This document shows, piece after piece, positions 11,768 to 11,851 of a stretch of DNA of 12,507 nt. Position 1 is the stretch's first letter. Each line of letters opens with the position of its first letter. The DNA comes from a virus, in UHGV virus genome UHGV-0291998; one strand, 5' to 3'. The translations under genes and the position numbers were made by a program. Below the pieces are notes generated by a model. The model saw only the letters and a program-made list of their open reading frames with translations. It did not search any database and had not been told where the DNA came from.

Positions 11768-11851
11768 ATGAGCTGGCCTGATGCAATCGTAACTCTGGGG
11801 ATGGTATTCGCAGTAGCGTTTGTTGTGTACTCGATTTGTCGATGGGGATAA
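11768..11851 (+). CDS. Candidate 27-aa single-TM peptide, below the ORF-track cutoff
   Basis: Strong SD GCAGGAGGTG 5-6 nt upstream of ATG 11768. Translation MSWPDAIVTLGMVFAVAFVVYSICRWG, stop TAA at 11849..11851. Confidence 0.35.
   Translation: MSWPDAIVTLGMVFAVAFVVYSICRWG

Follow-up and report, generated by a model that had tools for sequence, protein, structure and literature searches.

Does the gap between an upstream gene of 189 amino acids (aa) and a DUF4222 gene of 80 aa, in a 12,507-nucleotide (nt) stretch of the UHGV virus genome UHGV-0291998 (hereafter the window), hold a gene of its own, and if so, what could so small a product do? An earlier note, made from the letters of the window, had proposed an unannotated 27-aa hydrophobic open reading frame (ORF) behind a strong Shine-Dalgarno (SD) sequence. 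The window sequence and the ORF list place this frame on the + strand, from an ATG at 11768–11770 to a TAA at 11849–11851, with AGGAGG 7 nt and GGAGGTG 5 nt before the ATG, just as described. Following the frame through viral, bacterial and metagenomic collections, we conclude that the sense ORF at 11768–11851 is very probably a real gene. We further propose, with more reserve, that its product is a single-pass inner-membrane micro-protein of lytic growth that would act on a larger membrane partner.

Recurrence of the frame in changing surroundings

Relatives were collected in three ways: by anchoring on the DUF4222 gene in IMG/VR, by scanning a viral collection with a degenerate motif (WP(D/E)A, a gap of 40–70 nt and RWG-stop, which fixes W3, P4, A6, R25, W26 and G27), and by anchoring on the C-terminal motif of DUF551 genes, an anchor that is blind to the small ORF. 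The family frame has 27 codons and reads MxWP(D/E)A-x4-G-x3-A-x9-RWG-stop. The DUF4222 anchor returned 83 loci with 20 distinct upstream sequences, all of which have the ORF, intact in 82 of the 83 copies and with a 1-nt insertion in the other. With the motif scan added to these earlier loci, the family comprises at least 199 copies in at least 54 nucleotide variants and about 30 peptide variants, and the 27-codon frame was found on more than 190 viral contigs. Among the matches listed, the span is an identical 78 nt in 198 of 199 copies, though the motif allowed 40–70. Conservation of the ORF at the amino-acid level in homologous loci, which the earlier note had named as a check, is what we find in these collections.

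The flanks of these copies differ widely. At least 15 different sequences lie on the 3′ side, including DUF4222, hok/sok at a distance of about 150–240 nt, hairpin-like sequences and other small ORFs, and in the motif-scan set several different genes lie on the 5′ side. The DUF551 anchor gave 134 contexts, comprising 22 intact copies, about four variant or decayed copies, nine unrelated hydrophobic small ORFs and 99 with none. Two placements are usual: the distal end of the early-left operon, before DUF4222-xis-int, as in the window, or a position after DUF551 and just upstream of hok/sok. Because all three collections show the same ORF amid differing flanks, we regard the gene as independent of its neighbors, and the alignments indicate that it moves apart from them as a cassette of about 110 nt, consisting of an SD-bearing leader and the 27 codons.

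Start signals and the mobile leader

Each of the 83 distinct pairings of upstream sequence with ORF has an SD-like motif at −18 to −4. Codon 2 has A as its first letter throughout (AGC, ACC, AAT, AAC, ATC and others), which gives the start an ATGA sequence in all 83 contexts, and in 67 of them this is a genuine overlap in which the TGA ends an upstream ORF of at least 40 codons. All unique ORF variants start with ATG except one, which has GTG. Perfect AGGAGG followed by an ATG 4–9 nt on occurs at two sites in the 12.5-kb window, compared with 0.46 expected from shuffles. The other of these sites, at 7569–7586 (+), is aimed at an ATG at 7584, and the 74-aa ORF listed from 7551 probably has its true start there (MKMFKGL..., 63 aa).

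A second, in-frame ATG at 11729 would extend the product to 40 aa by the residues MKIEYQDAAGGES. This ATG overlaps the TGA of the upstream ORF (11730–11732) and has AGGAG at 11716–11720, 8 nt before it. The extension is particular to the context of the window; elsewhere an N-terminal extension is different or absent, the sequence 5′ of ATG 11768 varies by context, and family-wide conservation starts at that ATG. Both starts may be in use. In the window itself, ATG 11768 with its own AGGAGG is likely the start used, because a 1-nt deletion in the 189-aa gene probably abolishes coupling from that gene into ATG 11729.

The leader that travels with the ORF is what remains of the 3′ end of a DUF551 gene, of which the window keeps the ATGA (11768–11771) and about 25 nt of the tail; in other loci, the DUF551 tails terminate at the ATGA. 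The alignment of BP-4795 and YYZ-2008 with the window begins at about 11741, and BLAST matches start at window positions 11737–11749. Since homology to other phages begins there, these alignments put the left recombination joint of the cassette at about 11741.

Coding signature and strand

All 51 nucleotide variants keep the sense frame open, and the two alternative frames of that strand are closed. Entropy at codon positions 1, 2 and 3 is 0.36, 0.24 and 0.80, and ratios of non-synonymous to synonymous substitution rates (dN/dS) between clades range from 0.09 to 0.85, with most pairs at 0.1–0.4. In codons 7–24, which lie outside the search motif, the corresponding ratio of polymorphisms (pN/pS) is 0.46, as against 0.69 and 1.77 in the shifted frames. 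The earlier note had looked to the synonymous/non-synonymous pattern in relatives as a possible refutation, and this pattern fits coding: of the changes on a minimum spanning tree, 73 are synonymous and 82 non-synonymous, against an expected synonymous share of 27% (p = 9e-8). In one clade, 32 nucleotide variants give 19 peptides.

This substitution test alone cannot choose the strand, because the antisense frame that shares the wobble position scores the same. We call the sense strand on account of its start, SD and stop signals, and because in the window the wobble-sharing antisense frame offers no start (ATG, GTG or TTG) that would give at least 20 codons. Antisense coding was accordingly considered and rejected, the remaining antisense frames looking non-coding, with 27 synonymous and 128 non-synonymous changes in one and 21 and 132 in the other.

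The predicted membrane helix

The product in the window is MSWPDAIVTLGMVFAVAFVVYSICRWG. Residues 6–24 (19 aa) have a mean Kyte-Doolittle hydropathy of 1.7–2.8 in each of 11 divergent representatives, a set that does not include the variant of the window. These values are consistent with one transmembrane helix with short tails, which agrees with the earlier description of the peptide as essentially a single such helix. Its layout is a W3-P4-D/E5-A6 cap, a hydrophobic core at residues 6–24 containing G11, A13, A15 and A17, and an R25-W26-G27 end. W3, P4, A6, R25, W26 and G27 are invariant, as positions fixed by the search motif; G11 and A15 are kept in 29 and 28 of 30 peptides, respectively, and neither is fixed by the motif. 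The well conserved positions are G11, A13, A15, A17, Y21, S22, I23 and C24. Trp3 and Trp26 are separated by 23 residues, which in a helix roughly spans a bilayer from one interface to the other. The acidic D/E5 at the N-terminus and Arg25 at the C-terminus suggest, by the positive-inside rule, an N-out/C-in topology. A conserved binding face on the helix was also considered and rejected, as conservation shows no helical periodicity (moment 0.04, p 0.91).

Some relatives depart from the standard length. In-frame hexanucleotide expansions, giving AMAMAMAM or AVAVAV, lengthen four peptides (P0065, P0069, P0071 and P0079) from 27 to 31–35 residues, and the transmembrane length is variable for this reason. 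Two longer entries, P0074 (143 aa) and P0082 (206 aa), consist of an Ea22-like ORF that continues into the peptide with no intervening stop codon (...PPLESNK-MSWPDAFAIAGVAMSIALIVFAICRWG), and could represent either an extension by the gene caller or a genuine Ea22-like protein anchored to the membrane at its C-terminus.

Distribution among phages, plasmids and genomes

By BLASTN, the ORF is present in 1120 of 5426 complete Escherichia coli genomes (about one fifth), in up to five copies per genome, with 150 places on plasmids. The seven plasmid records listed are 93–102 kb in size, and one of them, pEC2_5 (98 kb), carries Ea22-like and DUF551 genes. TBLASTN matches include 933W, VT2-Sakai, Min27, BP-4795 and YYZ-2008, Shiga-toxin (Stx) phages of types Stx1 and Stx2, and others; the 933W copy occupies the unannotated gap from L0139 (DUF551-like) to sokW/hokW. 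When genomes were scanned at species level with the degenerate motif, the matches were confined to E. coli and Shigella, apart from a single one in an Oscillospiraceae metagenome-assembled genome that is presumably due to chance. In the Salmonella prophage Fels-1, the DUF4222-xis module is present and the small ORF is absent. Of the K-12 MG1655 islands, the four lambdoid cryptic prophages DLP12, e14, Rac and Qin were searched and hold no copy, an absence that would explain why small-protein screens in K-12 would have missed the gene.

A profile search over 1.8 billion cluster representatives gave 35 matches, comprising read-through and fusion artifacts, (AM)n/(AV)n expansions, Ea22-like read-ins and a few distant relatives. 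The distant relatives, such as MEISWPEAIMWIGIAFAAALAIYSIMRWGD and MNWPEAFRSVGIAFAIAFAVWALVRYL, keep WP(D/E)A, a glycine and an aromatic/basic C-terminus, and sit on short metagenomic contigs in packed gene runs on the same (+) strand. One of these contigs, L325, also encodes a PD-(D/E)XK nuclease domain and has a weak match to Proteus phages. As judged from these matches, the family is specific to lambdoid phages of E. coli and Shigella and to phage-like plasmids related to them, with a few distant relatives on metagenomic contigs.

Annotation status

The earlier note had called the gene unannotated, which holds for most records: the gap is left empty in NZ_CP065613.1, BP-4795, YYZ-2008, 933W and plasmid pEC2_5. 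It does not hold throughout, as PGAP annotates the 40-aa form as hypothetical protein WP_255625547.1 in NZ_CP011416.1, where the site matches a 106-nt query centered on the ORF region at 100%. UniRef A0A2Y4Q9C4 is the same 40-aa sequence, and sporadic GenBank and UniRef entries elsewhere are named “hypothetical protein”; a protein search with the 40-aa version found four clusters only. The note had also attributed the omission to a length cut-off, and we agree: besides the empty gaps, the catalog of O157:H7 Sakai based on ribosome profiling (Ribo-seq) took only ORFs of at least 30 aa (PMC5597208), so that a 27-aa ORF falls below it.

Several variants were compared with Pfam, NCBIfam, PHROGs, PADLOC and the sequences in the PDB, and no match was significant. 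The best PHROG, phrog_4612 (function unknown), reaches an unconvincing E of 0.019 with the bare peptide and 0.005–0.009 with artificially extended forms. Full-text literature searches for substrings of the peptide found no paper containing them, and the main text of the hokW-sokW paper (PMC8621323) has neither ‘small ORF’ nor ‘DUF551’.

Naming and clustering conceal the family further. In a protein collection clustered at 90% identity, the 27-aa peptides were grouped with unrelated DUF551 proteins of 121 and 185 aa, and fragments such as GGESMTWPEAF...RWG are named ‘DUF551 domain-containing protein, partial’; we consider the family hidden because of this artifact. A fusion of the peptide to DUF551 was considered and rejected, since DUF551 proteins end in ...PPQEVNQ, without the peptide. 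Shigella phage POCJ13 (L212, NC_025434.1) carries a pseudogene copy after DUF551 at 801–884, in which W3 has changed from TGG to TAG and G11 to V. Over this copy, its RefSeq record annotates PI30_gp73, a hypothetical gene of 42 aa that reads on the other strand and is probably a mis-call.

Few parts of bacterial and phage proteomes are as poorly charted as their small membrane proteins. The present gene is common and occurs in medically relevant phages, the reference Shiga-toxin phages among them, yet the GenBank records of 933W, BP-4795 and YYZ-2008 leave it out, and it should be added to annotation rules.

Gene neighborhood and prophage context

The earlier note had placed the ORF in a prophage early region, and the window indeed covers the immunity region and the early-left region of a lambdoid prophage, with a cI-type repressor (Table 1). 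The − strand to the left of the repressor carries Cro/cII-like genes and replication genes. On the right of the repressor follows a packed run on the + strand that contains an HTH protein, several small ORFs, a 62-aa two-helix ORF, an SPFH protein, an ORF6N protein and the 189-aa gene, followed in order by the small ORF, DUF4222, a 44-aa gene (phrog_3871) and a truncated excisionase. Simple consensus scans found no sigma-70-like promoter and no terminator on either strand of 11000–12507, although a weak promoter is possible.

Table 1. Coordinates of the small gene, its start signals and the genes that frame it in the window
Feature	Position (nt)	Strand	Basis
27-codon ORF and TAA, product MSWPDAIVTLGMVFAVAFVVYSICRWG	11768–11851	+	sequence, ORF list, family-wide conserved frame
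Shine-Dalgarno region GCAGGAGGTG	11753–11762	+	AGGAGG at 11755–11760
In-frame upstream extension MKIEYQDAAGGES, giving a 40-aa product	11729–11767	+	upstream ATG 11729, open frame
Leader travelling with the ORF, remnant of the final DUF551 codons (...PPQEVNQ-TGA)	11741–11771	+	alignments, BLAST
Upstream neighbor, 189-aa hypothetical gene	11164–11732	+	ORF list, alignment with NZ_CP065613.1, Pfam
Downstream neighbor, 80-aa DUF4222 gene	11856–12098	+	PF13973, E 1.3e-15; phrog_285
cI-type repressor (HTH and peptidase S24)	6336–7028	+	domain matches

The note had named the two neighbors of the ORF as a DnaN-like gene and the 80-aa gene. The position between these two genes is correct, but the label of the first does not stand, as the sole likeness of the 189-aa gene to DnaN is a sub-threshold Pfam match to DNA_pol3_beta_2 (E 0.007, 17 bits versus a cut-off of 27). 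Compared with NZ_CP065613.1, where the copy is intact, this gene has lost 1 nt near 11401 and is thereby broken into two overlapping ORFs, 11164–11523 and 11451–11732, and the alignment identifies it as either a pseudogene or the product of a sequencing error. On the other side, the ATG of DUF4222 lies 4 nt past the TAA of the small ORF, and GGGGA at 11845–11849, in the last codons of the small ORF, could serve as its ribosome-binding site.

Closely related prophages occur elsewhere in E. coli. A near-identical one (98.5% identity) lies beside mlrA in FDAARGOS_944, and a related one lies at yecE in CFSAN029787, where the small-ORF region is a 100% match.

Further observations concern the rest of the window. 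The 62-aa ORF (9362–9550, +) has two hydrophobic stretches and a 4-nt overlap with the start of the SPFH/Band-7 gene (9547–10374, PF01145, E 8e-31); the two look like a membrane pair inside the early-left operon, and neither matched PADLOC. The excisionase ORF is shortened to 26 aa from an ATG at 12255, and homology to other phages stops near 12292. It adjoins a − strand ORF, MFFGSDHGGERGALLYGLIGTCRLNGIDPEAYL..., that runs off the end of the window (12322–12507) and may be the C-terminus of an IS66-family transposase. In the closest relative, the xis gene is interrupted by IS911, at another point than in the window. Past the replication genes, near the left edge of the window, the gammaproteobacterial small RNA (sRNA) STnc100 (RF02076) gives a full-length Rfam match at 645–817 on the − strand (108 bits versus a gathering threshold of 47).

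Proposed role and alternative explanations

The reading we favor, and consider reasonably likely, is that the gene encodes a single-pass inner-membrane micro-protein that serves in lytic growth only and acts on a larger membrane partner. The gene would be transcribed with the early-left operon, since it lacks a separate promoter-like site and its + strand neighbors are tightly packed, and it would be translated either by coupling or by direct initiation. Expression would follow infection or induction only, the gene being silent in a repressed lysogen. The product would insert as a minimal single-pass protein of the inner membrane, with Trp3 and Trp26 at the interfaces, D/E5 outside and Arg25 inside, and its helix, rich in small residues (G11, A13, A15, A17), would pack against a host or phage inner-membrane protein and modulate it during lytic development. 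By analogy with characterized bacterial proteins of fewer than 50 aa and one helix, a partner-binding modulator is the most likely role, and a free-standing pore-forming toxin is less likely. Larger membrane proteins are the usual targets of small ones (PMC12648545), and YohP, likewise of 27 aa, is reported to insert via the signal recognition particle (PMC7549839).

A bolder version of this proposal, which we offer tentatively and think rather improbable, is that the peptide is a dedicated phage effector directed at a specific host inner-membrane machine, such as a DNA-entry route, a transporter or a protease/insertase, in the early lytic phase, where it might influence superinfection, the lysis-lysogeny balance or burst timing in Stx phages (933W, VT2-Sakai, BP-4795) and in one fifth of E. 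coli strains. If so, it would be a widespread and previously unrecognized micro-protein of host takeover; if it modulates host membrane function on induction, the development of Stx phages could be affected.

Several observations weigh against the partner-binding membrane protein, or against the gene behind it. Translation and membrane location are predictions from the sequence. The conservation pattern described above, with no helical face (moment 0.04, p 0.91), gives no positive sign of a defined binding surface, and constraint on the helix core is no more than moderate (pN/pS 0.46). Two copies have lost the start through a 1-nt deletion at codon 2, one other has a 1-nt insertion, and the POCJ13 copy has a stop in place of W3; in-frame (AM)n or (AV)n expansions add 4–8 residues to the helix. 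The wobble-sharing antisense frame gives the same split as the sense frame, with 81 synonymous and 73 non-synonymous changes. Finally, most copies come from closely related E. coli phages, and the counts are not independent events.

Three other explanations account for parts of these data. The peptide could be a membrane-damaging toxin or host-killing peptide that depolarizes or permeabilizes the inner membrane, acting either as a type I toxin, a likeness the earlier note had raised, or as an unguarded kil-type function, tolerated because the lysogen represses the operon. Its size and hydrophobicity fit type I toxins (fewer than 60 aa, one helix, short tails; PMC12648545), uniformly hydrophobic toxins such as IbsC exist (PMC12648545), a repressor-controlled early operon would make an antitoxin needless, and many copies adjoin a real hok/sok locus and other small hydrophobic ORFs. 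We nevertheless hold this to be unlikely, and the type I likeness did not survive comparison with the locus. The consensus scans of 11000–12507, which cover the search for an antisense sRNA promoter suggested in the note, gave neither promoter nor terminator on either strand; there is no Rfam sRNA at the locus, STnc100 being the only Rfam match in the window; and stable folding is absent both in the mRNA region (z 0.78, worse than shuffles) and in its antisense (z 0.01). Type I toxin mRNAs are typically silenced in translation, as stand-alone transcripts with a sequestered SD and a long structured 5′ UTR, whereas this gene is embedded in an operon and has a strong SD, with an SD-like motif in 83 of 83 contexts, and a start/stop overlap. 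No Hok or other toxin family matched in Pfam or NCBIfam at E up to 10, and as many as five copies per genome are tolerated. In pore-formers such as TisB, the helix carries a charged/polar, amphipathic signature, whereas the helix here lacks charged and polar residues alike and is not amphipathic.

It might also be that translation matters and the peptide does not, the frame serving as a coupling or spacer element for DUF4222 or persisting as a hitch-hiking remnant. The ATGA overlap with upstream sequence in 83 of 83 contexts, the 4 nt from the stop to the DUF4222 ATG with GGGGA in the last codons, the moderate constraint on the core (pN/pS 0.46) and the tolerance of length expansions and decayed copies would all suit such a spacer. 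We think it quite improbable, because the peptide is kept where no coupled gene follows on the 3′ side, as before hairpin-like sequence or about 150 nt of non-coding sequence ahead of hok, because its amino acids are preserved through synonymous change (the 32 nucleotide variants and 19 peptides of one clade), and because G11 and A15 are kept though outside the search motif. Distant relatives moreover keep WP(D/E)A...G...aromatic/basic in unrelated operons, and every variant stays hydrophobic. The remaining explanation, that the conserved element is an antisense ORF or an RNA element and the sense frame is open by accident, can draw on the wobble-sharing frame, open in 51 of 51 variants with its 81/73 split, on PI30_gp73 over the POCJ13 copy, and on a 95-aa antisense ORF at 11649–11936 in the window. 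The openness of the wobble-sharing frame, however, follows from T or C at the second position of the sense codons, as stops there need A, and in the window this frame has no usable start, as noted above. The 95-aa ORF puts the variable sense wobble at its own codon position 2 and extends into flanks that vary with context, the other antisense frames split 27/128 and 21/132, neither strand has an RNA structure signal, and in POCJ13 the copy itself is a pseudogene, interrupted by a stop at W3; we therefore consider this explanation very improbable.

Comparison with known systems

The predicted protein shares its size class and build with small single-pass proteins of fewer than 50 aa such as YohP (27 aa), KdpF (29 aa), CydX, AcrZ, MgtS and MgrB. 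In common with proteins of the YohP/KdpF type, it has one helix, tails of a few residues and an aromatic/basic cytoplasmic end, and it is likewise of a kind that often goes unannotated; YohP has exactly the same length of 27 aa (PMC7549839). Characterized membrane proteins of fewer than 50 aa bind larger membrane proteins (PMC12648545). In contrast to the YohP/KdpF group, the peptide has no sequence kinship to these proteins and no match in the PDB, and it is phage-borne and mobile as a cassette. The 27-aa gene would be expressed from an early phage operon, whereas the known small proteins belong to host stress regulons. The KdpF model TIGR02115 matched 12 residues of one variant only (14.7 bits versus a cut-off of 26.85, E 0.024), and the peptide of the window was unmatched. 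The family is previously uncharacterized, although phage-borne small membrane proteins are already known as a kind, and nothing in the analysis points to an unusual mechanism.

Phage inner-membrane exclusion and immunity proteins, such as HK97 gp15, T4 Imm and SieB of lambda and Rac, are dispensable for growth and are encoded in accessory regions. They are larger, at roughly 80–190 aa, and those borne by prophages are expressed in the lysogen from promoters of their own. Unlike these, the 27-aa gene has no promoter-like site, its operon should be repressed in the lysogen, and it has no PADLOC match. Host killing and exclusion, both mentioned in the earlier note, are still conceivable roles.

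With type I toxins (Hok/Gef, TisB, Ldr, IbsC, ShoB and DinQ), the gene shares a short hydrophobic one-helix product and an association with prophages. It differs from them in that no antisense RNA, promoter or terminator was found, in the lack of a repressive mRNA fold, in its strong SD and ATGA coupling, in the lack of any Hok or toxin family match, and in having no charged residue within the helix. In 933W-type phages, a genuine hokW/sokW locus lies about 90–150 nt downstream of the 27-aa gene, as a separate unit (for hokW function, see PMC8621323).

A parallel in position is XECs145, with the core MSDDISLAMEGALAVIAVVGVYCLVVFLMDRLGN, which is flagged ‘real’ in supplementary file 12 of the Ribo-seq-based catalog of novel small genes in O157:H7 Sakai (PMC5597208). 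It has the same niche, from DUF551 to hok, and the same kind of product as the 27-aa gene, and its sequence is unrelated; XECs145 (MSDDISLAMEGALAV(I/V)AVVGVYCLVVFLMDRLGN) is also the direct 3′ neighbor of one subtype of the 27-aa gene. Further hydrophobic small ORFs without sequence kinship to the family occur between DUF551 and hok/sok, for example at 6577–6732 of contig L118 and 7755–7961 of contig L124. The nine contexts in which an unrelated hydrophobic small ORF follows a DUF551 tail often have the same ATGA overlap. Judged by their sequences, XECs145 and similar ORFs are positional analogs of the 27-aa gene rather than homologs, and the ATGA-coupled hydrophobic ORFs behind DUF551 point to a niche in which phages repeatedly place membrane micro-proteins.

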